Both the position numbers and the translations under genes were made by a program. From IMG/VR virus record IMGVR_UViG_3300042544_001887: a stretch of 64,000 nt of DNA, one strand, 5' to 3'. Positions within the stretch are counted from its first letter, which is position 1; every line of letters starts with the position of its first letter. This document shows, piece by piece, positions 1 to 57,360 of this stretch. The stretch comes from a virus (lineage: Duplodnaviria; Heunggongvirae; Uroviricota; Caudoviricetes). The notes below the pieces were generated by a model, which saw only the letters and a list, made by a program, of their open reading frames with translations, was not told the DNA's origin and made no database searches.

Positions 1-9
1 CTGTGAGTG

Positions 10-300: not shown

Positions 301-439
301 CTTGTGGTCCTCTTGTTGCCCTATGTGTTACTTGTAGCACCAATAGACAGGCTCGTCAACAGGAATCTCTTCATCTTCTTCTGCTTGCTTGAGCAGATGC
401 TGTTCAAACTCCAGATATTCTTCCAGTGTCAAATCCATA

Positions 440-628: not shown

Positions 629-638
629 TTCACTTCTC

Positions 639-845
639 CTATTTGACAAAGTATTCACGACGGCTACCTGCGCCATCTGTTTGATTTGTAGGCAGATAAC
701 TGAAGCCTGCATAGCGTCCAGCTTCAAACAATACTGCTTCGATCATGCCGCAAACCGATTCGCGACCATCCGCAGTGCTGCTATCACTGGCAAGATAACT
801 ATTTGCACACTTCAGCACAAATTCGACATCAACAGTTTTACGCAT
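639..845 (-). CDS. Early hypothetical protein
   Basis: Own promoter, SD AGGAGG. Confidence 0.75.
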   Translation of the reverse strand: MRKTVDVEFVLKCANSYLASDSSTADGRESVCGMIEAVLFEAGRYAGFSYLPTNQTDGAGSRREYFVK

Positions 846-912
846 CTTTGCAGCCCTCCTATTGCCCTATGCCGTGTTATAGCATAGGGCATGATTCGGT
901 GTCAACCAGTTA

Positions 913-1326
913 TTAGTCTTCTTCTGTTTCAGTTTCCAGTGCAGTAGAAAGTTCGTAGATGCCGTTGTAGGTGTGAACTTGCCAGACAGCACCAGGAGTG
1001 AACAGGTAGTCGTATTCTTGCCCGTGTTCTGCACGGAACTGACGCCAGTTGTGCTCAGTGCAAGCATCAACATTATGCTCGCCGCGATCACGCCCGTATG
1101 CATTGCACTCGCCATCGGGAGCCGCATCAAAGTCGTGGGCAGTGCCAATCTCAGCACCAAGCGACGAAATGTTGCCAAGAGCAATCAGTTCACGCACCTT
1201 GGCTTCGTCAGCGTAGTGGTCTTGCAGGATTTGACCGTTGTGGCTGAGGTAGCCGTCCCAGTGGCAGTAGATGCCAGAGACAGTGCCGTCAGCGTTCTGG
1301 ATTGCAATAGTCGAACGAGTTCCCAT
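913..1326 (-). CDS. Conserved phage early protein (YCHWDGY family)
   Basis: MGTRSTIAI..IYCHWDGYLSHNG signature; own promoter and SD. Confidence 0.8.
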   Translation of the reverse strand: MGTRSTIAIQNADGTVSGIYCHWDGYLSHNGQILQDHYADEAKVRELIALGNISSLGAEIGTAHDFDAAPDGECNAYGRDRGEHNVDACTEHNWRQFRAEHGQEYDYLFTPGAVWQVHTYNGIYELSTALETETEED

Positions 1327-1379
1327 TGTGTGTATCCCTCTACACAGTGTTGCGTTGTGTGTTAGTTATATGACAAGCC

Positions 1380-1661
1380 TTACGGCTTGTCAACCTTTTC
1401 CGGAAACATTGCTGCGACTTTTTCAACGCCAGCAGCAGTCAGATACAGCACACGATTGCGGGTAGCAGTCTCAACATACACGCAGCCAGCATCGTCGCCG
1501 CGGCCCTGGTTCCAAGTCTGCAGACGCATATCCGGGTTCTTCAGCAGTTGCGTTATAGCCCGTTTGCGAGCCAGCTCACCTTCGTTATAGTTGCCATTGC
1601 AGCCACACATGCAGCCAGGACGACCCGAGTAAGCACGAACAGTATCCATAACAGTCAGCAT
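1380..1661 (-). CDS. Early hypothetical protein (Cys-rich GCMCGCNG)
   Basis: Own promoter, SD GAGGG. Confidence 0.75.
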   Translation of the reverse strand: MLTVMDTVRAYSGRPGCMCGCNGNYNEGELARKRAITQLLKNPDMRLQTWNQGRGDDAGCVYVETATRNRVLYLTAAGVEKVAAMFPEKVDKP

Positions 1662-1712
1662 CTTGTTTCCCTCTTCGTTGCTGTCTATGTGTTAGTTATA
1701 GCAATCATTGAC

Positions 1713-2111
1713 TCAAGCGTCAACCACTTTCTCCATCTCAGCGAGCAGATTTTTCAGAGCAGCGATACGCTCTTGCGTAGGGAAGAAGCGACCCGAGTAG
1801 CTGTAGCCATCATTGAGTTCTTTCTCCATAGCACGAGCAATCCGCACCTGCTCCTTGCGACGAGCTTCACTGTCCTGGATGCTACGCAGTTTGGCGGCAT
1901 GCATCAAGCTAGGACCATAATCGTCCTTGTATGCTGCGCCACGCTTGTTGAACACGAACTCACGATCATCGCTCTGGACAAAGATGTGCCCATGTCCGTT
2001 GATCTTAGTCACAGTGCCAAAGCGGGCAGTCAACAGCGTTCCGCTGTTGCGATGCTGCCGAGCAATACCAACTGTTTCACCAACTGCGGTAACGAAATCA
2101 CCGTATGCCAT
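1713..2111 (-). CDS. Early hypothetical protein
   Basis: Own promoter, SD GAGGG. Confidence 0.75.
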   Translation of the reverse strand: MAYGDFVTAVGETVGIARQHRNSGTLLTARFGTVTKINGHGHIFVQSDDREFVFNKRGAAYKDDYGPSLMHAAKLRSIQDSEARRKEQVRIARAMEKELNDGYSYSGRFFPTQERIAALKNLLAEMEKVVDA

Positions 2112-2176
2112 AGCGTGTATCCCTCTCTGCTATGTTTCTGTCTATGTGTTAGTTATAGCACCAGTACCAAGTGCTG

Positions 2177-2371
2177 TCAAGCAATCTTTTCGCCAGTGCG
2201 TAGATTGTATACAAAGCAGATACCGCCCAGGGCATCACGAACTTTGATAACGTCGTAGAAGCCCTGCTCCTTCATCAATTGGTGAGCAATTTTGCCTTCA
2301 GCGGCGTTGTAAACTGTGGTTACAAAAGTCTCAACTTGATTGCGGATGCCATAAACAGAATAGGAACGCAT
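2177..2371 (-). CDS. Early hypothetical protein
   Basis: Start MRSYSVYG at 2371, downstream of promoter and GGAG. Confidence 0.7.
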   Translation of the reverse strand: MRSYSVYGIRNQVETFVTTVYNAAEGKIAHQLMKEQGFYDVIKVRDALGGICFVYNLRTGEKIA

Positions 2372-2436
2372 AGCCTGTCTCCGTTGTGTTGCTCTACTCC
2401 AATACACTAGCATCAGAGTAGAGCCGTGTCAACCAG

Positions 2437-2904
2437 TTAGGCAAAAGTATAATTTTCTTCTGCTACACCGTTCACAGTGCCGTCCAACGAGCGACCAGTG
2501 CAGACATAAGGCCGGTTCCATTTGCCCACATTGATGTGCAGGTAGTAGGCTGTGTCGAAGTAGTCCGTCATGATGTCCGAACGATCATACCACAGGTTGC
2601 CACACATAGCAGCAGTCAGTTCGCGGAAGAACTGACCAACAGTATTGTCTGCATATTGATCCGGACGATAGGCGTTGGCCTGGTAGTAGTCCTTAACTTC
2701 GTGGAAACGCTGTCCGGTGCGTTCTGCATATTCACGATTGAAACGGTTTGCTTCGCCAATCAGATCCAGCTTGCCAGACTTGATTGTAACAACCAGACTG
2801 GAATAGTTATCTACTGAAATGGACCCTTTCATGCCATACCGCTTGAACACGGCTTTGATAGCCGGTGCCAACTGTGCCTTCTGCTCTTGATTCATGTAAG
2901 CCAT
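2437..2904 (-). CDS. LPD29-like (large polyvalent protein-associated domain) protein
   Basis: C-terminal SDIMTDYFDTAYYLHINVG motif. Confidence 0.6.
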   Translation of the reverse strand: MAYMNQEQKAQLAPAIKAVFKRYGMKGSISVDNYSSLVVTIKSGKLDLIGEANRFNREYAERTGQRFHEVKDYYQANAYRPDQYADNTVGQFFRELTAAMCGNLWYDRSDIMTDYFDTAYYLHINVGKWNRPYVCTGRSLDGTVNGVAEENYTFA

Positions 2905-2968
2905 AACCGTTATCCCTCTTTGCTCGGTTGCGTCTATGTTCTAATTATAGCACCAGCTGACAGTGCTG

Positions 2969-3148
2969 TCAACAGATTTCAACACCTTCTGAGTTGGCAA
3001 AGTCAGTAAACTCGTCTGCTATGTTGTTCAGCTGGTTGTGGAACTCGTAGCAGGCAGCAGGATGCCGCTCGCCCAGCAACGATTGCTGAATTGCATCTGC
3101 TTCATCCAGCAGGTCGATCAACCGCTGCCATTTTTCTTGTTGGGTCAT
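2969..3148 (-). CDS. Early hypothetical protein
   Basis: GGAGG before MTQQEKW; own promoter. Confidence 0.7.
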   Translation of the reverse strand: MTQQEKWQRLIDLLDEADAIQQSLLGERHPAACYEFHNQLNNIADEFTDFANSEGVEIC

Positions 3149-3212
3149 TGTTTCCTCCATTGTGTTGCCCTACTCCACATACATAGCATGTAGAGCAGGG
3201 CAGGTCAACCAG

Positions 3213-3452
3213 TTAGTAGATGAAATCCAACTCGCCGCGGATCACAGAGATCAGGTCGTAACCGTCACGGCTAGGCATATACTCTGCAATCTCTTCCGCA
3301 CTCCAGTCGCTGTGATCGCACTCAGCAGCATAGGCAAGGTCTGCCCACTCGTTGGTATCCATTTGACGTGCATCAACTGCATCGCCCAACTCAACCAACG
3401 TGACCATATAGTCGTCGTCTTGGCCACGCCAGATAACAGTATACAGAGCCAT
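3213..3452 (-). CDS. Acidic early hypothetical protein
   Basis: TAATG coupling with upstream ORF; AGGAG. Confidence 0.7.
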   Translation of the reverse strand: MALYTVIWRGQDDDYMVTLVELGDAVDARQMDTNEWADLAYAAECDHSDWSAEEIAEYMPSRDGYDLISVIRGELDFIY

Positions 3453-3595
3453 TATTCTGTCTCCTCATATGCACCAGCTTCGATGTCAGCTTCGATTTCG
3501 TCTGCAATACCACGCAGGATCATTACAATTTCCTGAGGATCCAGATTGCCTTCATTCAGCAAGTGCTCCACAGTCGCTTGCAGCATCGTGTCCAT
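3452..3595 (-). CDS. Small acidic protein (47 aa, absent from ORF track)
   Basis: MDTMLQATVEHLLNEGNLDPQEIV..; own promoter and AAGGAG. Confidence 0.65.
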   Translation of the reverse strand: MDTMLQATVEHLLNEGNLDPQEIVMILRGIADEIEADIEAGAYEETE

Positions 3596-3656
3596 TGTTT
3601 GCTCCTTGTTGCCCTACTCCACATACATAGCACATGGAGCAGGGCAGGTCAACAGT

Positions 3657-4025
3657 TTATTCAGGAAATTCCAAACGCAGTCGATCCTGCAAACGACGAA
3701 CTTCTTGACGAGCTTGATCCACGGCTTCTGCAAGCATGTCTTCAAGATAACCACCAATGCCCGACTCAATGTCATCAGCAGGATCACAGTTCACAGCATA
3801 GCAAGATCCCAACGACTCAGATCCTACAAGATGCCCTGCATAGAACACTCGAACTCGTGCGATGTAATGAGTGTCAATGCCACGATTGCAACGATCAATC
3901 ATGCTGTCGAGATCTGATACAGTCTCATCAAAGCAATCGCCTAATGCAGCCTGTTCGTAGGTCCAGTCTACAGTTACATCAAACTGATCCTTGCGGAAAC
4001 GCTTGGCTTCGTAGTAATGGTTCAC
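3657..4025 (-). CDS. Early hypothetical protein
   Basis: GTG start after GGAGGG; own promoter. Confidence 0.75.
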   Translation of the reverse strand: MNHYYEAKRFRKDQFDVTVDWTYEQAALGDCFDETVSDLDSMIDRCNRGIDTHYIARVRVFYAGHLVGSESLGSCYAVNCDPADDIESGIGGYLEDMLAEAVDQARQEVRRLQDRLRLEFPE

Positions 4026-44311: not shown

Positions 44312-45445
44312 ATGCGTTTAGATTTAGATATAAAATTAGATTATAAAGACGTTCTTATACGTCCCAAAAGAAGTACATTAGGAAGTCGTGCAGAAGTAGA
44401 TCTAATACGTAACTTTACGTTTAGAAACTATGTTCCTGGATTTCCTGAAAACACAGAAGATTATCATTATCGTGGTATTCCTATTATGGCAGCCAACATG
44501 GACGGTGTTGGCACATTTGAAGTAGCAGATGCTCTTGCGAAGCAAGGACTGTTTACATGCCTTGTAAAAACTTACACAGAAAAAGAATTAGTCGATTATT
44601 TTAATCAAGAACCGGGCGGCATTTATAGAACAGATCATGTTGCTATGAGTATCGGAGTAAGCAATGCAGATTACGAAAAGTTCTGTAAAGTTTATTTAAG
44701 TCTCGGTGCTAGATTAAAATACCTCTGTATCGATGTTGCTAATGGATATACAGAAACTTTTGTTAATCATGTAAGAAACATTCGCGAACGCTATCCGGAA
44801 ATAGTTATTATTGCCGGTAACGTAGTAACAGGCGAAATGACGGAGGAACTTATTCTTGCTGGAGCAGATATCGTTAAAGTTGGCATTGGTCCTGGTAGTG
44901 TTTGTACTACTCGTATACAGACTGGTGTGGGTTATCCGCAATTATCAGCAGTTATCGAATGTGCAGATGCTGCTCATGGACTCGGTGGTCATATTATTGC
45001 TGACGGGGGTTGCACTTGTCCTGGCGACGTAGCCAAAGCATTTGCAGCCGGTGCTGACTTTGTAATGCTAGGTGGAATGTTAGCCGGGCATGATCAAGGC
45101 GGCGGCAACGTTATACACAAGGCTTTCAAGACTGGCGAAATACACTATGATAACGGCGACGAAATACTTGATATAAAAAAGTTTGTGCAGTTTTATGGTA
45201 TGAGTTCAAAAGCTGCTAACGATAAACACTTCGGTGGCTTAAAAGATTACAGAGCATCCGAAGGTAGAGAAGTTCTTGTACCTTACAGAGGTGATGTACA
45301 AGTAACTGTGCAAGAAATACTAGGCGGGCTGCGTAGTACTTGCACGTATGCAGGTGCTAAGACATTAAAACAACTTAGCAAATGCACAACCTTTGTACGT
45401 GTAACACAGCAATTTAATGCTGTTTATGCGAACAATGGTAAATAA
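44312..45445 (+). CDS. guaC: GMP reductase
   Basis: [52 protein letters not shown]. Confidence 0.97.
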
Positions 45446-45448
45446 AAG

Positions 45449-45500
45449 TGGAACGCCAAAACGGGTTCCGAAAGATCTTGCTTAAATAAGGAGATATAAA
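45449..45500 (+). promoter_or_regulatory. ROSE-like RNA thermometer leader
   Basis: TCTTGCTT (45476-45483) pairs with SD AAGGAGA (45488-45494) with a bulged G; upstream hairpin GGAAC..GTTCC. Confidence 0.65.
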
Positions 45501-45935
45501 ATGACAAGACTTACAACATTAGACCTACCCTCATTTCATCGTGCCACAGTTGGCTTTGACAGAATTTTTAATGAAATTGAACGTCAATTTGCCAATTCTC
45601 CAAATACCAACAACTATCCTCCATACAACGTTGCTGAAATCAACGAAAACGAATGGATGATCAGTATTGCAGTTGCTGGCTTTGGAATGGACAATCTCGA
45701 TATTGTACACGATAAAAATATCTTGACTGTTGAGGGCACATCTCCAAAAGGAGACGAGGAAGTAAAGTATCTACACAAGGGACTCGGAAGACGCAGTTTC
45801 CGTAGAAGCTTTACACTAGCCGACTTTGTTGAAGTTGCAAACGCAACCCTTGAGCTCGGTATGCTAAATATTCATCTAAAGCGTAATGTTCCAGAAGAAC
45901 TACAGCCGAAGAGAATTGAAATTATTGCTAACTAA
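45501..45935 (+). CDS. Small heat-shock protein Hsp20 (IbpA-like)
   Basis: NYPPYN, IAVAGF, YLHKG..RSF.RSFTLA, GML.I.L..PE..P..I.I. Confidence 0.95.
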   Translation: MTRLTTLDLPSFHRATVGFDRIFNEIERQFANSPNTNNYPPYNVAEINENEWMISIAVAGFGMDNLDIVHDKNILTVEGTSPKGDEEVKYLHKGLGRRSFRRSFTLADFVEVANATLELGMLNIHLKRNVPEELQPKRIEIIAN

Positions 45936-45942
45936 TGTCTAA

Positions 45943-45971
45943 TTGTTAGAGGGTGCAACACCCTCTAACAA
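45943..45971. terminator. Hairpin terminator
   Basis: TTGTTAGAGGGTG-CAA-CACCCTCTAACAA, perfect 13-bp stem. Confidence 0.8.
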
Positions 45972-45988
45972 ACCTTGGAGAAAAATAA

Positions 45989-46321
45989 ATGACAAATGAT
46001 GTATATAAACAAAAAGAACAACTCGACATTGCTAAAGTTAATGAAAAAATAAAAGTTGATTATAAAGAACCGTCGAGATTTAAGGTTGTGTTTTTAAATG
46101 ACGACCATACTCCAATGGAATTTGTAGTTATGTTATTAGTCAAACTTTTTAAACACTCTGAAGAAACTGCACACGCTCTTACTATGAAAATTCACGAAGA
46201 AGGTTCGGGAGTTGTTGGAGTTTACAGTTATGAAATTGCCGAAGAAAAGGCCATAGAAACAATTTCTGTTTGCAGAGATAACGGGTTTCCTTTAAGAATT
46301 AAGTTAGAGGAAGAAGCTTGA
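45989..46321 (+). CDS. clpS: ATP-dependent Clp protease adaptor
   Basis: V..LNDDHTPMEFVV..L..F..A..IH..G..G.Y..EIAE.K..GFPL. Confidence 0.95.
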   Translation: MTNDVYKQKEQLDIAKVNEKIKVDYKEPSRFKVVFLNDDHTPMEFVVMLLVKLFKHSEETAHALTMKIHEEGSGVVGVYSYEIAEEKAIETISVCRDNGFPLRIKLEEEA

Positions 46322-46845
46322 AGTTAAAAGAACTAACATACGAAGTTCATCAACGTGCTGAACGTACCGAATTTGCACGAAATCTTCTTAAAGGGCTTTC
46401 TCCAGAAGAATACCATCGTTATCTGTATAATCAGTATATGATATATTCTATACTTGAAGATGCTGCCAAGCATGTATTACCTGAACTAAAAGAAATCTAT
46501 AGAGCAGAACGCATTTATGCAGATATCAGAGAACTCGAACGAGAATACGCTATAGGCACCACACCCAGTCTCTTAATGCCAGTTGTGCGTGAATATGAAA
46601 AGCATATTATAAATCTAAATCGAGAAGGTATACTTGCTCACATTTACGTTCGTCATTTTGGCGATATGTATGGCGGCCAGATGATTAAGAAACGTAATCC
46701 AGGATCAGGAACTATGTATGATTTTGATAACGTTGAAGAACTTAAAACTAAGGTTAGATCAATGCTGTCAGATGACATGGCAGAAGAAGCAAATCGTTGT
46801 TTTGAGTTTGCTATTCAATTGTTTACGGAATTAACCAATGAGTGA
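46318..46845 (+). CDS. hemO: Heme oxygenase
   Basis: LKELT..H..AE; AHIYVRHFGDMYGGQMI; EA..CFEF. Confidence 0.93.
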   Translation: MKLKELTYEVHQRAERTEFARNLLKGLSPEEYHRYLYNQYMIYSILEDAAKHVLPELKEIYRAERIYADIRELEREYAIGTTPSLLMPVVREYEKHIINLNREGILAHIYVRHFGDMYGGQMIKKRNPGSGTMYDFDNVEELKTKVRSMLSDDMAEEANRCFEFAIQLFTELTNE

Positions 46846-47518
46846 AGTTTGGAATCAGTTAGTCAATCTTCAAGATAAAATTATATCTAAACTCAACTCG
46901 TGTGCCACAGAAGTATACGAGCCTGGCATGGATAGATTTAATCAGCCGGGCTGGGTGAATAGAGTTTGGCAAAACGACACAATTCGTCGTGCCCATGTTG
47001 ATGTGGTTGATGCAAGATCAACTAAAGGACTGTGGATGATGCATGTTTGTTTATTTCCACATTGCACAGATACTGCACCAATTTACGGGCTAGACATAAT
47101 AGCAGGTAAAAATAAAGTTACAGGATTTTTTCACGATTTTAGTCCAACTGTAGCACCTAATCATACAATGATTATAAACTTTGGAAAAGTTGTATCTGAG
47201 TATGACTGGAAAAAAGAAAGAGAGCTTCCTGACTGGGCTAAAGCTATTTTTAGTCAGTATATGGTTGCTGTTGGTAATGTAAATACCAACGAAGAATTAG
47301 AATCGTTAATAGACTTAAGTCTTAACAATCTTGATGACTGGCTTGGATATTACAGATACACAAAATGCACTTACGAAGAAGGCGCGGCAGCACAAAATCG
47401 TTATGCATATTATCAAAAACAAAATCCGCATACACCAAGAACAATGACAGCTCTTGGACTAAACGAAGAAGATGTACAAGTTTTTGTACAGGAATGCTTG
47501 TTTCCTGATATAAAATAA
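46838..47518 (+). CDS. pcyX: Ferredoxin-dependent bilin reductase, PcyX type
   Basis: RRAHVD (D55), MMHVC (H69), YGLDII (D86), QKQNPHTPR; Asp rather than PcyA Glu76. Confidence 0.85.
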   Translation: MSEVWNQLVNLQDKIISKLNSCATEVYEPGMDRFNQPGWVNRVWQNDTIRRAHVDVVDARSTKGLWMMHVCLFPHCTDTAPIYGLDIIAGKNKVTGFFHDFSPTVAPNHTMIINFGKVVSEYDWKKERELPDWAKAIFSQYMVAVGNVNTNEELESLIDLSLNNLDDWLGYYRYTKCTYEEGAAAQNRYAYYQKQNPHTPRTMTALGLNEEDVQVFVQECLFPDIK

Positions 47519-47573: not shown

Positions 47574-48029
47574 ATGAAAAAAATAATAATAATCGCATGT
47601 TTGATTGCGAATCCGGCCCTAGCGGATATCGTGTTTGAATTTAATTCCCCTGCTTTTAGCGGCAATGGATATAGTACACACGTTCTTACTATTGAACAGT
47701 TAGAGCAACAACGCAGAGATAAAATTAAAGCAGACGAGCAAGCAGAACTTGATCGCATTGAGCGTGAATATCGTAACAGTAACGCTTATAAATTTCAAAA
47801 CAACTTAGAAAGTCGTATCTACGCACAACTGTCAAAACAAATAGCAGATGCACTATTTGGCGAAGGCGGCACCATTACAATAGGAGAATGGGCAGAAGCA
47901 GAAACTCCATTCGGCGATAATATTCGTTGGATGAGAGATGTTGATGACAGAATTTATATAGAGGTATACGACTCAAATGGAGAGTTAGTATCTAGCTTTG
48001 ATGTACCAGTAGGGGAGTTTGCGTTCTAA
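47574..48029 (+). CDS. csgF: Curli assembly protein CsgF-like
   Basis: Signal peptide; FEFNSPAFSGNG..IEQ..F..NLESRIYAQLS.QI..LFG. Confidence 0.85.
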   Translation: MKKIIIIACLIANPALADIVFEFNSPAFSGNGYSTHVLTIEQLEQQRRDKIKADEQAELDRIEREYRNSNAYKFQNNLESRIYAQLSKQIADALFGEGGTITIGEWAEAETPFGDNIRWMRDVDDRIYIEVYDSNGELVSSFDVPVGEFAF

Positions 48030-48802
48030 TGAAAATACTATTATCTATATTGCTGGCCACATCTATATTAGCAAGTTGTTCATCTACAGTGAATAGAATT
48101 GAAAGTGAACCGCCGCAGGTTGTGATCACAGACGAAGAATACCTAAATGCACTTCCTCCTCTAGCAGGACCTATGGTAGCAGCAGTGTATCAATTTGAAG
48201 ATAAAACAGGGCAGCGTAAACCTAGTGAACGCCTTGCAAATATCAGCACAGCCGTTACACAAGGTGCAAGTGAATACGTAATTAAAGCACTACGCGAAGT
48301 AGGCAACGGTACATGGTTTAAAGTTGTTGAACGTGTGGGATTAGAAAACTTGTCTAAAGAGCGTCAGATTATTAGACAGACCAGAGAAAGTGTAGGAGAC
48401 GAAACTCCTCTAGCACCAATGATGTTTGCAGGACTAATTGTAGAAGGTGCTATAGTTGGTTATGATTCAAATACTCTAACAGGCGGAGCGGGGGCACGCT
48501 ATTTAGGTATAGGACCGAGCACTCAATACACAGAAGATGTTATAACTGTAACAATGCGTTGTGTAAGTGTGCAGACCGGTGAAATATTAACCAGCACGGC
48601 GGTAACAAAAACAGTTGTAAGCACTAGCACAGATATGGGGGTATTTCGCTTTATTGAGTTAGGCACACAAGCAGTTGAATTAGAAGTGGGCAACAGTCAA
48701 AACGAAAGCGTAAATCATGCTGTAAGATTGGCAATTCAAGCAGCAATAGTAGAAATGATAAAGGAAGGTGCGGATAACGGTATCTGGACCATCCAACAAT
48801 AA
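48029..48802 (+). CDS. csgG: Curli secretion channel lipoprotein CsgG
   Basis: Lipobox LASC; AVYQFEDKTGQRKP, STAVTQG, WF.VVER.GL.NL.KERQIIR, EG.I.GYD. Confidence 0.95.
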   Translation: MKILLSILLATSILASCSSTVNRIESEPPQVVITDEEYLNALPPLAGPMVAAVYQFEDKTGQRKPSERLANISTAVTQGASEYVIKALREVGNGTWFKVVERVGLENLSKERQIIRQTRESVGDETPLAPMMFAGLIVEGAIVGYDSNTLTGGAGARYLGIGPSTQYTEDVITVTMRCVSVQTGEILTSTAVTKTVVSTSTDMGVFRFIELGTQAVELEVGNSQNESVNHAVRLAIQAAIVEMIKEGADNGIWTIQQ

Positions 48803-48841
48803 ACAGAGTAAGATAAAACTTACCAATACGAGGGCAAAAAA

Positions 48842-49675
48842 ATGAAAAAGATTCTAACCACAGTGGCTTTCTCTATGTTGGCAACAACAGCGATAGCAAG
48901 TGAAGTATATATTGATCAAGCAGGTGGTGCATTGAATGTAGATGTGCTACAAGAAAATGGACTTAACCGTGTTAATAGAGAAGACAACCCTTTTGATATT
49001 GAAGGAAATGACATTGATATTAACATAACTCAAAACGGCGACGGCAACGAAGCAGATTTTGAATTAGAATCAGGGGCAAATAATACTACACTGGTCTACA
49101 GTGCCGCTGGAGATTATAACACTATAATTGGACAAATATTTGGCGGAATTTCAAATACATTTGATACTACTATTACTGGTAGTTCGAACGCTATTACATA
49201 CTGTAGAGATTATACAAACAGTAATTGTAATGGTGTAATTGTTAACAATACCACAACTACAGTAGAACTAATAGGTAGTAATAACCAGTTGAACTTTGCA
49301 TTAGACAGTGCAGATAGCACTAATAATATAAAAATAGGACAAACTACTCCTAGCGATCAAAACGTGTTCAATCTTACACAAATTTCAACAGCAGGCTATG
49401 ACTCTGTAACTGCTAACATTGATGGAGATTCAAACACTACCGATATTACTCAAAATACCACAGGTGGAAACAATGTAGTAATTATGGACATCATTGGTGG
49501 AAACAACGTATTAGCATTTACTCAAACTGGAGCAGCAGGTTATAACAATATCACAATGGACATAACCGGAAACTCCAATGCATTTACGTTTGATCAACAG
49601 ACTGCTATAGGATATACTTATATCACTGGTGTAGTTGCTGGTAATTCAAATACTGTGAATATATTACAGAACTAA
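48842..49675 (+). CDS. Curlin-like repeat protein
   Basis: Signal peptide; repeated Q/I-x-G-x-x-N beta-arc units (ITQNGDGNEA, ITGSSNAI, LIGSNNQL, ITGNSNAF). Confidence 0.75.
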   Translation: MKKILTTVAFSMLATTAIASEVYIDQAGGALNVDVLQENGLNRVNREDNPFDIEGNDIDINITQNGDGNEADFELESGANNTTLVYSAAGDYNTIIGQIFGGISNTFDTTITGSSNAITYCRDYTNSNCNGVIVNNTTTTVELIGSNNQLNFALDSADSTNNIKIGQTTPSDQNVFNLTQISTAGYDSVTANIDGDSNTTDITQNTTGGNNVVIMDIIGGNNVLAFTQTGAAGYNNITMDITGNSNAFTFDQQTAIGYTYITGVVAGNSNTVNILQN

Positions 49676-49676
49676 T

Positions 49677-50771
49677 ATGTGGCGTTGGTTTGGAATAATG
49701 GTTATTATACCTAGCATAGCATTTGCTGAAGTGGGCAGTATCACAGAGTTTGATGGCAATCCTGCAGGTGCTGTTCGTAGCAAAGAAGAACTTGTTTTTG
49801 AACAAGCAGGGTTCGGTGTGGAAATGCTAGACAAGTTGATTACTGCTCAAACTAATTTAGAAATTACATTTGAAGACGATTCAAAAGTAAGAATTACTGA
49901 ACAAAGTGAATTAGTGATAGACGATTTTGTATATGACCCAAACACCAGCACAGGAAGTATGAGTATGAAAGTTGCCCTCGGCACTGTACAAATGACCAGC
50001 GGTAAACTAGCTAAAACTAGCCGAGATCGTGTAAGTATAAACACGCCTACTGCTAGCATAACAGTTAGAGGTACTGATTTTTCAATGACTGTGGACGAGT
50101 TAGGTCGTAGTCTGATAATTCTGCTTCCAAGTTGCCCTGACGAAACACTCAACGAAGACGAATGTCCAGTGGGTGCTATTACAGTTAGTAACGCAGCAGG
50201 TAGTGTATCTCTTAACGAAGCATACCAAGGAACTATGGTAAGCAGTATGGCAATGTTACCAAGCGATCCTCGTAGATTATTGTTACAAAGATCAAATATT
50301 AACAATGAATTAATCATTGTTCCTCCTAGTGAATTTCCAAACGGATTTGCTACTGAAGACGAAGAAGAAGAAATTAGAACAGGCCTTGATGTAGACTTTT
50401 TAGAATATCAAGAACTTAGCGTAAATTTATTAAACGACGATCTTCTTAACTTTTCACAATTAGACGTAAACAGGCTTAATAACAAATACTTGGATAACTT
50501 TTTAGATTTCACACCAGGCTTAGACGACAACGAACTAGATGAAGAAGAAAATACAATTTTACCAAACATACACAAATATCCATGGATGACATGGATTGCA
50601 AACGAAGAAAGCATATTTATAGACAGTGATCGCCCTCCTCACATTGCTGTTCTAAATACCAGGGCAGACACACACGGAACTTACAGTCTTACACAAGACG
50701 ACTACGTTGCAAACGTTCAAATACAAGACGGTGGCGACAACATCAATATTAAGGTGGTACAAAAACAATGA
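49677..50771 (+). CDS. FecR-domain periplasmic protein
   Basis: ITFEDDSKV.ITEQSEL.IDDFVYDP; INTPTASITVRGTDF. Confidence 0.9.
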   Translation: MWRWFGIMVIIPSIAFAEVGSITEFDGNPAGAVRSKEELVFEQAGFGVEMLDKLITAQTNLEITFEDDSKVRITEQSELVIDDFVYDPNTSTGSMSMKVALGTVQMTSGKLAKTSRDRVSINTPTASITVRGTDFSMTVDELGRSLIILLPSCPDETLNEDECPVGAITVSNAAGSVSLNEAYQGTMVSSMAMLPSDPRRLLLQRSNINNELIIVPPSEFPNGFATEDEEEEIRTGLDVDFLEYQELSVNLLNDDLLNFSQLDVNRLNNKYLDNFLDFTPGLDDNELDEEENTILPNIHKYPWMTWIANEESIFIDSDRPPHIAVLNTRADTHGTYSLTQDDYVANVQIQDGGDNINIKVVQKQ

Positions 50772-52417
50772 AAACAATAATAAAAATAATCGCAACATTT
50801 TTTGTACTAACATTTGCCACAGCAGCAAACGCTGCAATTACAGATGGTAAATTTGGTATAGCACAAATATTTGACGTTCAATATTATTGGAATGGAACAA
50901 CGCTTAATGCAAGCAACTTTATTGCTCCATACGATAAGGACTTCAACACAGTAACAGCAACCTCCGGGCAGTATTTTGAATTTTTTGATTCAACAGTGCA
51001 ACCGGGAAAACAAGGTCTAAGATTAATGAATTCCAACGGAACACTGGATCGTATTATTCATGACTACGGAGACATTACAGCACTAGGCTCCGGCGCCATA
51101 TTTTATATCGGCAGCGGATTCTTTGGTAATGTTATCTCGACAGCACAAGGTTATAACTATGGATCTAGTGCTTCGTTTACAAATATGGATACAAGTGTAG
51201 ATTCAAGTGATTTAACAAGTTACACTTTCGCAAGTTCGCAGCCGCTAGCAGCAGGACAAAGTGCTGCTCCAGCAGGTCCAACTTATACTAACCTAAACAG
51301 TACTATAACAACTGTTTATCCAACTAGTACTAATACACCTGCAGGTGAAGAAGCCATTAAAGCAGTCGACGGCAGCGGCAGCACCAAGTATCTTAACTTT
51401 GACAGAGAAACAGCAGGTTTCACTGTAAAATTAAGTGCAGGTCGTGTGGTAAAAGCATTGCAATTCACAACAGCAAACGATTTTGCATTGCGTGATCCAA
51501 CTAAGTTTACACTTTATGGTTCAAACGATGGTGTTACTTGGACAGCAATTGTACAAGATCAACCTATTACACTGCCTAGCGGACGTGGTGTAACAATAGA
51601 TCCTGTAGTTATTACAAACACAACAGCATATGTTTATTACTTTATTACATTCCCTGAATTAAAGTCAACAACAGATCCTAGTTGTGCTAATCCAACTACA
51701 CAACAACAGATACTTGCTTGCGACAGTGTTCAGATTGCAGAAGTAATATTCTTGATGGAAGACGGCGATACCACTACCAGCACTGACCAAGGTTCAGGAA
51801 GTGTAAGCAACCCAGGTCCACAAGTACAAGTACCGTTAACCAGTATCACAAGTGTACAACAAGCACAAGTTGCAACAGCATTTGCTATTACAAGTGGCAA
51901 CAATGTTGACTTTACTATTATAGGTAGTTCAAACACAGTTGACATTGAACAACTAAGCAATGGTAACTATGTATTACTTTACTTAAACGGTAGTTCAAAC
52001 ACACTGGATATTTCACAGAGTGGATCAAATGCTGATAGAAACTTTGCTGACATTAACATTGTAGGCAGCAACAACACTATGACATTTGAACAAAGTGGTA
52101 ACAGCAACAAAACAGCATTTTTAGATATTGACGGTAGTTACGGAACATACAACATTACTCAAACAGGAACTGGACTACATCATTTAGATCTTACCAACGT
52201 CGGCGATGATGCTACAGTTACAGTATTGCAAGAAGGTGCAGGTAATCATCAAGCAATAGTAGAACTAGAAAATGCAGGCGGAAACTGGAACTTCAATCTT
52301 ACACAGAGTGGAGATACAAGTCAGCTGTATAGTCTTCCAAATAACCTCAGTGACAATACTGTAGTAAATGGCGTTTGTACTAGCGGCACTTGCAATATGA
52401 CAGTTAATCAACAATAA
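50768..52417 (+). CDS. Secreted discoidin/F5-8C carbohydrate-binding + curlin-repeat chimera
   Basis: KAVDG..TKY..TTAND..RDP..F.LYGSNDG..W (discoidin-like); C-terminal QSG.N/QTG/QEG curlin repeats. Confidence 0.75.
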   Translation: MKTIIKIIATFFVLTFATAANAAITDGKFGIAQIFDVQYYWNGTTLNASNFIAPYDKDFNTVTATSGQYFEFFDSTVQPGKQGLRLMNSNGTLDRIIHDYGDITALGSGAIFYIGSGFFGNVISTAQGYNYGSSASFTNMDTSVDSSDLTSYTFASSQPLAAGQSAAPAGPTYTNLNSTITTVYPTSTNTPAGEEAIKAVDGSGSTKYLNFDRETAGFTVKLSAGRVVKALQFTTANDFALRDPTKFTLYGSNDGVTWTAIVQDQPITLPSGRGVTIDPVVITNTTAYVYYFITFPELKSTTDPSCANPTTQQQILACDSVQIAEVIFLMEDGDTTTSTDQGSGSVSNPGPQVQVPLTSITSVQQAQVATAFAITSGNNVDFTIIGSSNTVDIEQLSNGNYVLLYLNGSSNTLDISQSGSNADRNFADINIVGSNNTMTFEQSGNSNKTAFLDIDGSYGTYNITQTGTGLHHLDLTNVGDDATVTVLQEGAGNHQAIVELENAGGNWNFNLTQSGDTSQLYSLPNNLSDNTVVNGVCTSGTCNMTVNQQ

Positions 52418-52433
52418 ATTTGTATACCACCTT

Positions 52434-52463
52434 AATGATAGGGCCTACGGGCCCTATCATTTT
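52434..52463 (+). terminator. Rho-independent terminator
   Basis: AATGATAGGGCC-TACG-GGCCCTATCATT. Confidence 0.85.
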
Positions 52464-52490
52464 AAATAAATACGTTAGGGGGCAATAACA

Positions 52491-52829
52491 ATGGATTTAG
52501 TATACGGAATAGCATTGAGTTTTCATCTAGGAATGAACGAGGACTACAATAATTTGCATCCACATATTCGTTTACAAAACGATGACTTTATTGCAGGTGC
52601 TTACTACAATAGCGAAGATGCATTAAGTGCTTATGCTGGGATTGAGCTAGGCAGCGGAAAATGGAATCACGAATTCGGTTTAGTATCTGGATACAATGAA
52701 AGCACTGTAATTCCTTTTGTTAGATCCACTTATGAATTAAATGATAATACAATAGGTTATATATCGCCAGGGTTCGAAGATAACAACATTGGTGTAGTAT
52801 TAGGCATAGAATTTCAAATTAAAAAATGA
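52491..52829 (+). CDS. Small beta-barrel-like protein
   Basis: LHPH..GAYYNSE..S.YAG..GLVSGY; alternating aromatic strands. Confidence 0.6.
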   Translation: MDLVYGIALSFHLGMNEDYNNLHPHIRLQNDDFIAGAYYNSEDALSAYAGIELGSGKWNHEFGLVSGYNESTVIPFVRSTYELNDNTIGYISPGFEDNNIGVVLGIEFQIKK

Positions 52830-53065
52830 AGTGGCTGATCGATCTATTTAAAGGAAAAGAAGATGAAGTACACAGTGGATCATCGGACCTCCATATTAGA
52901 ATTGCTGAAATCCAGACCCGCATCGCCGCTGTTAGAAGCCGCAATGGCTGGGACAAAGAACCCTATAAAAATACTAAAATACAATCCCAACCAGTGGTGG
53001 CCCAGGAAAAACCTAAAGTAGGCAGCGAAGATTTAAAAGCTAAACTACTTGCTATAAAAAAATAA
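52826..53065 (+). CDS. Hypothetical protein
   Basis: ATGA overlap. Confidence 0.65.
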   Translation: MKWLIDLFKGKEDEVHSGSSDLHIRIAEIQTRIAAVRSRNGWDKEPYKNTKIQSQPVVAQEKPKVGSEDLKAKLLAIKK

Positions 53066-53072
53066 ATACAGT

Positions 53073-55112
53073 ATGAAAAAATTACTGTTATCGCCTGTTT
53101 GGAGCATTTTAGTATTAGTATTGTTGGCTTGGCTACAGTTTGCTAATCCTAGTTTTTTAGAAAGTCTACAGCTACGTTACTTTGACCAACTTATAGTAAA
53201 TCAAGAACCTGTAGCTAACAACGTTTACACAGTAAACATAGACGAAGCAAGTTTAAAGGCAAACGGACAATGGCCGTGGCCAAGAGGCGAATACGCCAAA
53301 CTCATCGAAGAACTATATGCACGTGGTGCAGGATTAGTTGTGTTCAACGTTCTAATGAGTGAAACAGATCGTGCAGGACAAGATGGCGTATTATCTACCA
53401 CAATGAGCAACTATCCTGTTATAGTTACAATGTTGGGTACAGAGGAAAACAAAAATGAACCAATCAATCCTGGTGCTAGTATTATTAATAGCGACTACAT
53501 CGATCTTATTCCTTCCGTGCCTGGCATCACAGCAAACGTGTCAGATATTGAACGTGCGGCTGTTGGATCAGGAATTGTTAACACTTTTCCAGAAATAGAC
53601 GGTGTTACAAGACGTGCTCCACTAATACTAGAAAGCGGTGGAATACTGTATCCTAACGTTACTATGGAAGTGCTTCGTGTTCTTGCCGGCGATCCAAGTT
53701 TCCAAATTAAACTGTCACCAATTGGTATAGACAAACTTCGTATTCCACAGTATGGTGTATTACAAACAGATGAAATCGGCAGAGTTTGGTTAGATTGGAG
53801 TCAAAATTTTTCCAGTTACAGTGCTGCTGAGTTGCCCGATGATTTTGCAGGCGGTATAGTTTTTGTAGGACCAACAGCAGCCGGCATTACACAACCAATT
53901 GCAACAGCCGCAGGCGGTATTTGGCCGCATGAACTACAAGCTATAATGCTAGGTACAGTGTTTAATCAAAGCAATATAAAACGTCCAGCATGGGCAACAG
54001 GTGCTGAATTGCTAGGATTTGTAATTTCTGGCATAGCTTTAATAATAGCAGCACGTTGGACCTATGCGGGCATAGGAATATTTTTAATACTAGTTGGAAC
54101 ATCAATCGGTGGCAGCATCTATATGTTCTCTGCTTATAACTTCTTACTAGACGGTTTTGTTCCGGCAGCATTCTTGTTGTTGGTAGGATTAGTAAGATAT
54201 ACTGTTAAGTTTGTAAGTGAGTTCTTACAAAAGCAAAAGATCAAAAAACAATTTGGTGGTTATGTGTCGCCTAAGATTGTTGATTTACTGGCTAAAGATC
54301 CGAGTGTAATAGAACGTGGAGTAAAGAAAAACATCTCTATTACTATGACTGATCTGCGTGGCTTTACTCCTCTTGGAGAAAGTTACGGTGCTGATGTTGA
54401 AGGATTGCGTCAAATCATGAATGACTACATGGAAGCAATTACACAGCCAGTATTACGCAACGAAGGCACTATTATCAAATATATCGGTGATGCAAGTTTA
54501 CATATAAACGGTGCACCATTTGATCAAGATAATCATGAATGTGTTGCGGTAAAAACTGCAATTGAAATGATAGATGCTGTAGAGGTGTTTAATGAAGAAC
54601 TTAAAGCAAAAGGTAAGCCACCCGTTGGCATGGGTGCTGGTATCAATACTGGTCCTACAGTTATTGGTAATATTGGCAGTTATAAGCGTTATGGTTATGA
54701 CGTTTTAGGTGATAGTGTAAGCACAGCCGCACGTCTTGAAGGACAAACCAAGCCCTATGGTGTTTTATTAATACTAGGACCAAAAACTGCCGAAGTAGCA
54801 CGTCATTTCTATCACGTTGTAGAATTAGATCTATTAGCAGTCAAAGGTAAAACCGAAGCACTTCCTATTTACACAGTAATTTGGAGAGAAACACCCAACA
54901 CTGAGTTTTGGCATCATCATGAAACATTCTTATCAGAATACAGATTAGCAAATTGGAAATCAGCTCTGGAACAAATTCAGTGGTTAAAAATTAATGGTCC
55001 TGTCACACTAGTCAAGTACTACGAGATGATGGAAGAACGTATTGCTGATCTATCTAAGAAAAAAATACAGCCCGGAAAATGGGACGGAGTATTCAGAGCT
55101 ACAAGTAAATAA
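53073..55112 (+). CDS. CHASE2-domain class III adenylate cyclase
   Basis: GQWPWPR, EIDGVTRR (CHASE2); three TMs; TDLRGFT, KYIGDA, GINTG, YDVLGDSVSTAARLE. Confidence 0.95.
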   Translation: MKKLLLSPVWSILVLVLLAWLQFANPSFLESLQLRYFDQLIVNQEPVANNVYTVNIDEASLKANGQWPWPRGEYAKLIEELYARGAGLVVFNVLMSETDRAGQDGVLSTTMSNYPVIVTMLGTEENKNEPINPGASIINSDYIDLIPSVPGITANVSDIERAAVGSGIVNTFPEIDGVTRRAPLILESGGILYPNVTMEVLRVLAGDPSFQIKLSPIGIDKLRIPQYGVLQTDEIGRVWLDWSQNFSSYSAAELPDDFAGGIVFVGPTAAGITQPIATAAGGIWPHELQAIMLGTVFNQSNIKRPAWATGAELLGFVISGIALIIAARWTYAGIGIFLILVGTSIGGSIYMFSAYNFLLDGFVPAAFLLLVGLVRYTVKFVSEFLQKQKIKKQFGGYVSPKIVDLLAKDPSVIERGVKKNISITMTDLRGFTPLGESYGADVEGLRQIMNDYMEAITQPVLRNEGTIIKYIGDASLHINGAPFDQDNHECVAVKTAIEMIDAVEVFNEELKAKGKPPVGMGAGINTGPTVIGNIGSYKRYGYDVLGDSVSTAARLEGQTKPYGVLLILGPKTAEVARHFYHVVELDLLAVKGKTEALPIYTVIWRETPNTEFWHHHETFLSEYRLANWKSALEQIQWLKINGPVTLVKYYEMMEERIADLSKKKIQPGKWDGVFRATSK

Positions 55113-55136
55113 GGAGCCAAAAGGCTCCTTATTTTT
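55107..55136. terminator. Bidirectional terminator
   Basis: AAATAAGGAGCC-AAAA-GGCTCCTTATTT between convergent genes. Confidence 0.85.
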
Positions 55137-55506: not shown

Positions 55507-55851
55507 TTATTTTTTTTTATCTTCTCTGCCGGTGCTGTTAAAAACTTGGCTACGGCTTTGATACTTGTTAATCAATTCGTCGAGTTCGTCTTTTTTGTCA
55601 TCTGGAAGCGAATCTATGTGTTGTCGATATTCTAAAACCATTGTTAGCTTACTGTTTAAACGAATCATGTCGTTATCTAACATACGTACACGATCCACTA
55701 GTTTAATCAGCGTCCCCATTGTTTCACCAATCACAGGATCAATTTCTTCAGTTACCCATTTCCATATAAAGAAAACAAAGTAGCCCATTCCCATTGCTGC
55801 AATGATCGGAAATCCAAAGTCTTTAATAGCCTGTGCAATATCAAATTCCAT
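55507..55851 (-). CDS. Single-TM coiled-coil protein (GFPI motif)
   Basis: FGFPI..; RVRMLDNDMIRL. Confidence 0.75.
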   Translation of the reverse strand: MEFDIAQAIKDFGFPIIAAMGMGYFVFFIWKWVTEEIDPVIGETMGTLIKLVDRVRMLDNDMIRLNSKLTMVLEYRQHIDSLPDDKKDELDELINKYQSRSQVFNSTGREDKKK

Positions 55852-56129
55852 TAGTCTCTCCTTGCATCGTTTTTGCCTTCGTTAGCAGCAATACGATCTA
55901 TATTAGGTTTAACATTTAACGCATAACTTAATAGTGCATCTATCTTAACTAAATCATTATTCATAGTTTGAACACGATTATCTAACTGTGCAATAATATT
56001 TTTTAGAGTTGTAACAGATCCTGTTACTCCTGCTAGAATAAACTTCAATGTTAAGAAAACAAAACCGCCGGCTGCTAATGCACCGGCAATTGGAAACCCT
56101 ACTTCGCTTACTAATTGCAAAAAATCCAT
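55851..56129 (-). CDS. Single-TM coiled-coil protein, paralogue of neighbour
   Basis: VGFPI..; RVQTMNNDLVKI. Confidence 0.75.
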   Translation of the reverse strand: MDFLQLVSEVGFPIAGALAAGGFVFLTLKFILAGVTGSVTTLKNIIAQLDNRVQTMNNDLVKIDALLSYALNVKPNIDRIAANEGKNDARRD

Positions 56130-56226
56130 TAAAACGCCCTCACGTTTTGCATAGTATTTAGCATAATGCGATTGTTTTTTATTGACAAAATGCTTAAATA
56201 TACTACTATATTACAAAGGAGACTGC

Positions 56227-57360
56227 ATGAACAATTTTATAGAAGATTTTATTAAAAAAAATACATTTCACAGACCGACTTTAGTGTTAGATATAAATGA
56301 AGTGGAAAAAAACTTCTATAATCTTAAACGTGGGATGCCCGATGCTCACATACACTATGCTGTTAAAAGCAATCCGCATCCTGAAATACTAAAATGCTTA
56401 GTGCAACAAGGTTGCAAGTTTGATGCAGCATCGATGGGAGAAATAGATGCTTGTTTAGAAGCAGGTGCAAAGCCCGAACATATCAGTTTTGGCAATACTG
56501 TAAAGCGTTGGCAAGACATCAAATATGCACACTCTATAGGTATTGACCTTTTTGCAGCAGATGCAAGTGAAGAACTTGAAAAGATTGCAAATTACGCACC
56601 TAACTCTCGCGTGTTTATTCGTGTATTGATTGGGCAAACTGAAGCAGAATGGCCGTTATCACGAAAGTTTGGTTGCGATCCCCAAATGGTTCTTGAGCTA
56701 ATGGGATATGCTACAGACCTAGGTCTTAAGCCAGTTGGTATTAGTTGGCACATTGGTTCACAAACAAAACATCCTGAAATGTGGTTCGACACACTAGAAA
56801 TGATGGCTAACCTTTGGGATGAAGCCTGCGGTTTTGGATACGATTTATCGTTGGTAAACATCGGCGGCGGATTTCCTGCATACTACGGTGTTGATATAAC
56901 TCCGCCAGAAGAATACGGTAGAAAATTAATGGATCGTGTTCGTAAGCAATTTCCAGGTGCAGACTACATTATGGTCGAACCGGGTCGCGGATTAGTAGGC
57001 AGTGCTGGTGCTATTGCTGCTGAAGTGTTATTGGTTAGCAAGAAGTCATCCTACGAAACAGTGCGTTGGGTTTATTTAAACATAGGAAGATTTAGTGGAT
57101 TGGCTGAAACCGAAGGCGAAGCTATTAAATATCAATTTTCTATACCAGGTAAAGAAAACTCTACTACAGGACCATGTATTCTTGCAGGTCCTACTTGCGA
57201 TAGTGCAGATGTACTATATGAAAAGAACAAGGTTCATTTGCCAGTTGACCTTTGCAGTGGCGATCGATTTATTATACGAAACTGCGGGGCTTACACCAGC
57301 ACCTACAGCACTATTGCGTTTAACGGGTTTCCGCCGTTAGCTGTTGTAGTTTGCAAATGA
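56227..57360 (+). CDS. Group IV PLP-dependent ornithine/lysine decarboxylase
   Basis: HYAVKSNP, FDAASMGE, RKFG, WHIGSQ, NIGGGFP, EPGR, GPTCDSAD, GAYT. Confidence 0.93.
   Translation: MNNFIEDFIKKNTFHRPTLVLDINEVEKNFYNLKRGMPDAHIHYAVKSNPHPEILKCLVQQGCKFDAASMGEIDACLEAGAKPEHISFGNTVKRWQDIKYAHSIGIDLFAADASEELEKIANYAPNSRVFIRVLIGQTEAEWPLSRKFGCDPQMVLELMGYATDLGLKPVGISWHIGSQTKHPEMWFDTLEMMANLWDEACGFGYDLSLVNIGGGFPAYYGVDITPPEEYGRKLMDRVRKQFPGADYIMVEPGRGLVGSAGAIAAEVLLVSKKSSYETVRWVYLNIGRFSGLAETEGEAIKYQFSIPGKENSTTGPCILAGPTCDSADVLYEKNKVHLPVDLCSGDRFIIRNCGAYTSTYSTIAFNGFPPLAVVVCK

Follow-up and report, generated by a model that had tools for sequence, protein, structure and literature searches.

A curli-type secretion module with a FecR-domain protein and a CHASE2 receptor cyclase in a 330-kb freshwater T4-like phage

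The DNA analyzed here is a stretch of 64,000 nucleotides (the window) from the IMG/VR virus record IMGVR_UViG_3300042544_001887, a member of the Caudoviricetes. Between positions 47559 and 55112, the list of open reading frames (ORFs) and their translations contains eight ORFs that all lie on the + strand. Their coordinates are those given by an earlier note made from the sequence alone and confirm the eight contiguous, co-oriented genes described there. They encode homologues of the curli secretion proteins CsgF and CsgG, two curlin-repeat proteins, a secreted FecR-domain protein, two small proteins (o112 and o79) and a nucleotidyl cyclase with a CHASE2 receptor domain (Table 1). Every domain assignment of the earlier note was backed by Pfam, and PHROGs families exist for CsgF, CsgG, FecR and the cyclase. 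Spacing within the cluster is very tight: the overlap is 1 nt for csgF and csgG and 4 nt both for the FecR and lectin-curlin genes and for o112 and o79, while 1 nt separates curlin-1 from the FecR gene and 7 nt separate o79 from the cyclase gene. Only two gaps are present in the cluster, one of 39 nt upstream of curlin-1 and one of 73 nt upstream of o112.

Table 1. Genes and other features of the cluster, with positions in the window.
Feature	Position	Strand	Size and evidence
CsgF homologue	47574..48029	+	151 aa from probable start; Pfam CsgF 5.5e-12; phrog_35372 3e-40
CsgG outer-membrane channel lipoprotein	48029..48802	+	257 aa; Pfam CsgG 1.1e-51
Curlin-repeat protein 1 (ORF3)	48842..49675	+	277 aa; Pfam Curlin_rpt 22.9 bits
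Secreted FecR-domain protein	49677..50771	+	364 aa; Pfam FecR 3.9e-10
Lectin-curlin fusion (ORF5)	50768..52417	+	549 aa; Curlin_rpt 33.1 bits, 5.5e-8; F5_F8_type_C 5.7e-6
Intergenic hairpin and AATAAATA box	52437..52472	+	read directly from the sequence
o112, eight-stranded beta-barrel (predicted)	52491..52829	+	112 aa; AF2 model
o79, hydrophilic protein, no assigned family	52826..53065	+	79 aa
CHASE2 receptor class III nucleotidyl cyclase	53073..55112	+	679 aa; Pfam CHASE2 1.1e-37, Guanylate_cyc 2.5e-16
Intrinsic terminator, 12-bp stem and T-run	55107..55134	+	terminator scan; overlaps the cyclase stop codon

A six-gene core of this kind has already been published for pelagiphages (PMC9599517, PMC7029224, PMC9004378). 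In the account of Wittmers et al. 2022, myo- and podo-pelagiphages share one conserved module made up of CsgF, CsgG, CsgA/B, FecR, another CsgA/B and an adenylate cyclase. This module was found at all 65 GOV2 stations, made up about 0.1% of viral proteins, was expressed according to metatranscriptomes and was likely of alphaproteobacterial origin (PMC9599517). Superinfection defence, aggregation, import and recombination were advanced there as hypotheses (PMC9599517). Zaragoza-Solas et al. 2020 proposed 'sibling capture' for the 'curli operon' of pelagimyophages and found freshwater SAR11 myophages to be without the operon, and for phage Melnitz a pore that times lysis was put forward by Buchholz et al. 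2022. The novelty that the earlier note had seen in the combination was therefore not maintained; aggregation and superinfection defence also appear in the pelagiphage papers, and lysis timing in the Melnitz paper. Its narrower statement, that this combination has no experimental functional description in a phage, holds.

When the cyclase protein was used as a query, Methylophilales phage Melnitz (39% identity) and Pelagibacter phage HTVC008M (35%) were retrieved. The records of HTVC008M (KC465899, AGE60348-60353) and Melnitz (MZ577097, gp99-104) are annotated with the same gene order from CsgF to the cyclase, FecR and the second curlin being labelled variously (FecR/curlin or hypothetical). 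The present cluster shares with these modules the six core genes, their order and orientation, and a place among the variable accessory genes of a T4-like genome. Identities amount to 29-49% with the isolates and reach 88% (cyclase) with uncultured viral contigs. It differs in its carrier, which is 330 kb long, has 33 tRNAs and comes from lake and river metagenomes, whereas the pelagiphage and Melnitz carriers are marine and about 140-150 kb long. Unlike the published module, it also has a discoidin/CBM32 lectin domain on the second curlin and a three-part insert (hairpin with box, o112, o79) between this curlin and the cyclase. Published accounts make no mention of CHASE2 and read FecR as an iron regulator (PMC9599517). 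It is near certain that the locus is a copy of the published viral module in which type VIII (curli-type) secretion genes are combined with FecR and a receptor cyclase; what is new is this copy in a 330-kb freshwater T4-like phage, not the combination itself.

Cyclase relatives at 49-88% identity were found on 35 IMG/VR contigs. In the IMG/VR neighbourhood survey, co-conservation of the genes, on which the earlier note had agreed beforehand to let its proposal fall, was observed throughout: the series CsgF-CsgG-curlin-FecR-(curlin)-cyclase stood in the same order and on the same strand in about 30 of 30 viral loci whose upstream DNA was long enough to be informative, far more often than by chance, and the variable insert was confined to the position between the second curlin and the cyclase. 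Short contigs assigned to Flavobacteriaceae, Legionellales, Pirellulales, Luteolibacter, Polynucleobacter, Rhodobacteraceae and other groups (loci L042-L052) also bear phage-type modules, complete or nearly so. They were rejected as reliable evidence of cellular copies; these contigs are binned to unrelated phyla and are most likely phage DNA misbinned in metagenome-assembled genomes (MAGs).

For the secretion channel, the longest csgF ORF begins at 47559, but the start at 47574 is favoured by a GGAGGG ribosome-binding site upstream of it. In the translation, the signal peptide of CsgF is followed by the mature N-terminus FEFNSPAFSGNG. The Pfam match spans profile positions 8-129 of 132, which suggests that the N-terminal segment that plugs CsgG has been kept. 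Comparison of CsgF with PDB sequences by phmmer gave a single, spurious match to a repeat protein. CsgG carries a LASC lipobox and aligns end to end with E. coli CsgG (3X2R/6L7A, E 3e-49). The features held in common with the E. coli curli system (csgBAC/csgDEFG; CsgG-CsgF structures 6L7A and 6SI7) are thus full-length CsgG homology, the lipobox, a CsgF family member and secreted curlin-repeat proteins. In contrast to E. coli, the FecR and cyclase genes of the phage sit among the fibre genes. According to the translations, Sec-type signal peptides are present on CsgF, curlin-1, the FecR protein and the lectin-curlin protein.

Curlin-1 is made of Asn/Gly/Gln-rich strand-turn repeats behind its signal peptide. 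Its Curlin_rpt score lies above the gathering cut-off of 20.7 bits, two stretches are matched at a permissive threshold, and nearly all related loci have a gene of its sequence cluster in this position. The second curlin protein is a fusion in which the signal peptide is followed by an N-terminal region without assignment, a discoidin/CBM32-type domain (about 180-295), a Ser/Thr/Gln linker and C-terminal curlin repeats (about 370-549), with four stretches matched by Curlin_rpt. The lectin domain claimed in the earlier note was borne out by the match of residues 180-295 or so to the N-terminal discoidin/CBM32-type module of the GH92 mannosidase 7NSN (E 9e-13). Most relatives have a second curlin of 227-352 aa, as against 549 aa here, and a long form (550-566 aa) is restricted to the closest relatives (L003/4/6/7). 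The lectin domain points to a fibre subunit whose head binds glycans.

The FecR protein begins with a signal peptide of 17 residues, followed directly by a beta-sandwich (18-200, pLDDT about 80 in the AlphaFold2 (AF2) model). The best Foldseek matches of this domain were the PupR cell-surface signalling domain 6OVK (chain R) and 4M0N, a Bacteroidales anti-sigma factor, with TM scores by target of 0.45-0.50. Neither a cytoplasmic anti-sigma domain nor a transmembrane (TM) segment was found in the sequence or in the model. Because both are missing, the protein is not a classical iron-starvation FecR. Behind the sandwich come an acidic linker of about 115 aa (209-324, pLDDT about 30), which is predicted to be disordered, and a C-terminal tail (about 322-364) modelled as a small, curlin-like beta module.

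The cyclase has one TM segment, a periplasmic CHASE2 domain (about 24-308), three further TM segments and a cytoplasmic catalytic domain; the hydrophobic segments in the translation lie at about 8-23, 311-326, 331-351 and 361-377, and the Pfam CHASE2 match covers 16-320. The protein matches phrog_35576 over its full length (5.5e-192). Alignment to CyaC (1WC0) and Cya2 (2W01) showed that the metal-binding Asp427 and Asp473, the adenine pair Lys469/Asp543 and Arg554 are kept, that is, five of the six catalytic positions. In the family, D427, K469, D473 and R554 are invariant and D543 is nearly so. The pair Lys469/Asp543 agrees with the ATP-type specificity proposed in the earlier note, and the enzyme is likely an adenylate cyclase as judged from these residues.

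A FecR profile was searched against one genome per prokaryote species, which gave 399 stretches with FecR relatives, of which 80 loci were kept. Of these, 69 were taken as cellular and, together with a Hyphomicrobiaceae MAG locus (L039), make up a set of 70. A CHASE2 protein is encoded within 4 kb of the FecR gene in 34 of these 70 loci, which are non-independent, many being from SAR11 and the rest from Hyphomicrobiaceae, Caulobacterales, Myxococcota, Spirochaetales, Omnitrophota and further groups. In 11 loci, the CHASE2 gene abuts the FecR gene, and all 11 encode CHASE2 cyclases. The proposal that FecR and a CHASE2 cyclase form a periplasm-to-cytoplasm signalling unit is supported by this cellular pairing.

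Two of the loci were confirmed with Pfam. In Litorimonas cladophorae (L104), a FecR gene is followed by a CHASE2-cyclase gene. In Ca. Pelagibacter ubique HIMB4 (L087, 4839-12103), an operon encodes an IalB-like protein, a CHASE2-SpoIIE/PP2C protein (666 aa), a 465-aa unassigned protein, an 874-aa FecR protein and a 233-aa unassigned protein. Even SAR11, to which the hosts of the described marine phages belong, thus has the FecR-CHASE2 pairing. The HIMB4-type operon is conserved in about 20 other SAR11 loci, and the pelagiphage papers are silent on this host-side FecR/CHASE2 system. From the literature, the Burkholderia BiofilmReg operon combines a LysM-FecR protein with a CHASE2 histidine kinase (PMC5192318), and in the cyaD1-smc02177 case of S. 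meliloti the FecR-domain gene smc02177 is among the cAMP-regulated (Clr) targets, the cyclic AMP (cAMP) coming from CHASE2 cyclases (PMC5498481).

In the cellular pairs, as in the phage, the gene for a secreted FecR-domain protein neighbours that for a CHASE2 receptor with one plus three TM segments. The L039 cyclase is 31% identical to the phage enzyme, and other loci reach 25-31% over the CHASE2 region. The cellular partners differ in being without the acidic linker, the curlin-like tail and CsgF/CsgG neighbours, and in having varied outputs. FecR and CHASE2 therefore appear from gene content to be a cellular sensor pair that is independent of the output domain (cyclase, PP2C or, from the literature, kinase) and of curli, and FecR is accordingly unlikely to be an iron regulator. 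In L039 (4574-12136), a 1304-aa FecR/cadherin-like/Big_9/legume-lectin protein is encoded directly upstream of the CHASE2 cyclase and downstream of an HlyD-family gene; this FecR-lectin/adhesin fusion is reminiscent of the phage order, FecR gene then lectin-curlin gene.

The tail of the phage FecR protein has a conserved pattern, Y..Q..G.G.N.I.I.Q, which resembles a curlin repeat. When aligned end to end with the C-terminal repeat of both curlin families by hhalign, it gave P values of 7-8e-4, compared with 0.1-0.5 for the controls; in a plain search of the curlin proteins, a hidden Markov model of the tail scored marginally above shuffled controls. A 70-residue tail profile matched the FecR protein in every locus that bears CsgF/CsgG, in most cases with E values of 1e-11 to 1e-30 and in one case of 6e-6. 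None of the cellular CHASE2-partner FecR proteins was matched (best E 0.14). The acidic disordered linker and the curlin-like tail are thus confined to the curli-linked FecR proteins. Beyond adjacency, this distribution is the best evidence that the signalling pair may be functionally joined with the secretion genes.

Taken together, we read the locus as a curli-type export system combined with a FecR-CHASE2 envelope sensor, the two halves being linked by the FecR tail, and we give this reading a probability of about 0.6. This mechanism has been inferred from comparative genomics, homology and the localisation signals of the proteins. In infected cells, CsgG and CsgF would form a channel in the outer membrane, through which both curlin-repeat proteins would be exported and assembled into surface fibres; in this clade, one of the fibre proteins would bear a carbohydrate-binding head. 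The secreted FecR-domain protein would be the periplasmic partner of CHASE2, as in bacteria, and the state of the envelope or of secretion would be converted into a cytoplasmic cyclic nucleotide, probably cAMP. The curlin-like tail of FecR would then be the likely physical link between the secretion and signalling halves.

A stricter form of this link is that the curli-linked FecR protein acts as a trans-envelope tether and reporter: the FecR domain would sit on CHASE2, the linker would reach or thread the CsgG/CsgF channel, and the tail would be templated into the fibre or nucleate it, so that secretion or fibre load would be read as cyclic-nucleotide synthesis. We regard this form as a long shot. 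If true, amyloid export would be coupled to a second messenger by a mechanism that is undescribed in phages or bacteria. Prediction of a complex between the FecR domain (18-205) and the periplasmic CHASE2 domain (24-308) gave a score of 0.00, a result that speaks neither for nor against binding.

Several observations weigh against the combined export and sensing reading. Fibres, export and cAMP have been experimentally shown for no phage copy, and in Melnitz cultures no clumping was seen (Buchholz et al. 2022). The constriction triad Y51/N55/F56 of E. coli CsgG is S/N/I here, with both aromatic residues, Tyr and Phe, replaced. Moreover, no match to CsgE, CsgC/H or CsgD, the gate, periplasmic inhibitor and regulator of bacterial curli systems, was obtained in Pfam or PHROGs for any of the eight ORFs; the published phage modules are likewise without CsgE and CsgD (PMC9599517). 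On the signalling side, the transition-state Asn of the cyclase is replaced by Ser, the motif GDxVNxAxR reading GDSVSTAAR. The Ser is fixed in a large clade that includes Melnitz, while Asn is found in HTVC008M, L036 and the bacterial L039. This change is not decay, because it is fixed across lineages that are only 39% identical, and cyclases active without the transition-state Asn are known. In addition, no cyclic nucleotide (cNMP)-binding domain was found in the 330-kb record of the phage genome, so that any receptor would come from the host. Finally, the curlin-like character of the FecR tail relies on a modest profile score (P about 7e-4) and a low-confidence fold, and the Pfam Curlin_rpt model misses the tail even at permissive thresholds.

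Part of these observations would also fit a channel without fibres. Following Buchholz et al. 2022, CsgG/CsgF would serve as a pinholin- or secretin-like pore in the outer membrane, gated so as to time lysis, with the cyclase and FecR regulating its opening. The structural argument of these authors, the lack of clumping in Melnitz cultures, the constriction residues changed to S/N/I and the absence of the CsgE gate from the cluster are all in line with such a pore. Nevertheless, two curlin-repeat proteins with signal peptides are encoded in nearly every copy, and the GenBank annotation of Melnitz contradicts the statement in the Melnitz paper that fibre genes are missing. The N-terminal region of CsgF has been kept, and the neighbours in the window are metabolic accessory genes and not lysis genes. 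We therefore consider a pore alone to be unlikely.

A missing CsgE gate, together with the name of the FecR domain, could also point to uptake: an open CsgG pore would import cofactors or siderophores and FecR would respond to iron (Wittmers et al. 2022; Zaragoza-Solas et al. 2020). This is the least probable of the alternatives, and we give it very little weight. The phage FecR consists of a signal peptide and a periplasmic domain, with no anti-sigma part or TM segment, and neither an extracytoplasmic function (ECF) sigma factor nor a TonB-dependent transducer was found in the cluster with Pfam. The cellular FecR relatives pair with CHASE2 sensors and not with iron transport genes, and the conserved curlin proteins would be left unexplained.

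The small protein o112 was called a small barrel in the earlier note, and this description agrees with its AF2 model (pLDDT 90.3, pTM 0.78, eight strands), in which it is predicted to adopt an outer-membrane-type barrel fold. Foldseek matched the model to designed minimal TM barrels, OmpA-TM, OprF, Ail, OmpX and PagP, and weak PagP-like signals were also obtained with PHROG 3600 (3e-9) and Atlas (0.93). The strands have one strongly hydrophobic face, and small or polar residues, with invariant His, Ser, Glu and Arg, make up the other. No signal peptide was found in 21 phage homologues, which all start at strand 1, whereas the cellular relatives in the AlphaFold database have 26-30 additional N-terminal residues. 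In-frame TAG and TAA codons lie 12 and 21 nt upstream of the o112 start; an N-terminal extension by read-through of the TAG was ruled out by the TAA, 9 nt further upstream in the same frame. The gene is present in about 20 of 31 loci and is missing from Melnitz, HTVC008M and about one third of the loci, and o79 is limited to the closest relatives. Neither protein had a significant Pfam match, even at permissive thresholds, and o79 also matched no PHROG family.

The earlier note had given this barrel a central place. In its full model, the infected cell would display amyloid, and surface contact would be passed through the barrel, likened to NsrA, and FecR to the CHASE2 cyclase, the contact-dependent cAMP serving aggregation, exclusion or lysis timing. 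A precedent for the principle is found in S. meliloti, where NsrA, an outer-membrane protein, is needed to activate the CHASE2 adenylate cyclases CyaK/CyaD; moreover, the barrel fold of o112 is of the outer-membrane type and the FecR-CHASE2 pairing is real. The analogy with NsrA itself was not upheld. NsrA has about 1200 aa, with the barrel in residues 600-1200, and is unrelated in size and architecture to the 112-aa o112; neither o112 nor CsgG resembles it, and no homology was found. As o112 has no signal peptide in any homologue, is absent from about one third of the loci and is unlike NsrA, it is not the outer-membrane sensor of the module, and o112 and o79 are optional inserts and not part of the core. 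The gene is also preceded by a hairpin and by its own promoter-like box. Fibre display and contact-dependent cAMP are pure inference, and we hold the full model to be improbable. In 12 loci (cluster c19; L008 7657-9666 and relatives), the variable insert also encodes a protein of 600-670 aa, in most cases immediately downstream of the o112-type barrel. In this protein, a signal peptide and a Thr-rich linker precede a C-terminal beta domain that ends in Phe (autotransporter-like); no Pfam or PHROG family was assigned to it.

As regards transcription signals, the 73-nt gap upstream of o112 contains a 9-bp stem (52437-52445/52450-52458) with the loop TACG, followed by ATTTT. The terminator scan did not call this hairpin, the T-run being too short. 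The box that follows lies at 52465-52472, 18 nt upstream of the o112 start, and the whole element is possibly a partial terminator combined with a late-type promoter. The earlier note had placed the genes under late boxes, which was not confirmed for the cluster. The exact T4 late promoter, TATAAATA, does not occur on the + strand near the cluster, and the relaxed motif ATAAATA occurs there only at 52466, upstream of o112, and at 53062, where it overlaps the o79 stop codon. Over the window, ATAAATA was counted 22 times against 20.3 expected, and is thus not enriched. The one credible late box is the motif upstream of o112. The strong terminator listed in Table 1 marks the end of the transcription unit.

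The IMG/VR record that carries the cluster is 330,024 bp long, with a CheckV completeness of 93%, and contains 33 tRNAs, a T4 Gp23-type capsid gene (E 5e-102) and a single copy of the module. A concatemer as the origin of the 330-kb length was ruled out, as no large self-matches were found. The GC content is 0.48-0.50 at positions 1-4000 of the window and at 210-225 kb of the genome, compared with a genome mean of 0.37, and three tRNA genes lie just before the start of the window. Metagenomes of lake water and rivers contain the 7.5-kb stretch; with four possible source samples set aside, at least half of its sampled words are present in 8 runs from 7 studies. No RNA run was among the datasets listed as containing the stretch, and no near-identical DNA was found in the phage collection.

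In the window, the module is flanked by metabolic accessory genes in an accessory-gene island and not by lysis or structural genes. Directly upstream of csgF, at 46318-47518, overlapping genes encode a heme oxygenase (Pfam 1e-18) and a ferredoxin-dependent bilin reductase (1.8e-14). They form a hemO/pcyX-type pair, in a carrier that is probably not a cyanophage. Further upstream (44312-46321) lie genes for an enzyme of the IMP dehydrogenase (IMPDH)/GMP-reductase family, Hsp20 and a ClpS adaptor. Downstream of the cyclase, two tandem paralogues of phrog_18771, without assigned function, are encoded on the - strand (55507-56129), followed on the + strand (56182-57360) by a pyridoxal phosphate (PLP)-dependent ornithine/arginine/diaminopimelate (DAP) decarboxylase. 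In a 258-kb relative (L040), a cREC_REC (PF20274) protein is encoded at 2752-3126, about 4 kb upstream of csgF.

Few multi-gene accessory cassettes of aquatic phages are as widespread as this module, and more than 6,500 clusters of its FecR protein were found at 90% identity. The present copy extends it to a freshwater jumbo T4-like phage, which matters in view of the 2020 report that it is absent from freshwater SAR11 myophages. For the FecR protein and the cyclase, the comparison with cellular loci leads to a sharper hypothesis, in which the two would be a sensor pair of the bacterial CHASE2 type and not an iron regulator beside an unrelated enzyme. In the phage version, FecR has gained a linker and a curlin-like tail that have no counterpart in the cellular proteins. 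To our knowledge, no ligand of CHASE2 is known in any system; a partner protein tied to a defined secretion pathway could therefore be a tractable entry to the ligands of these receptors.

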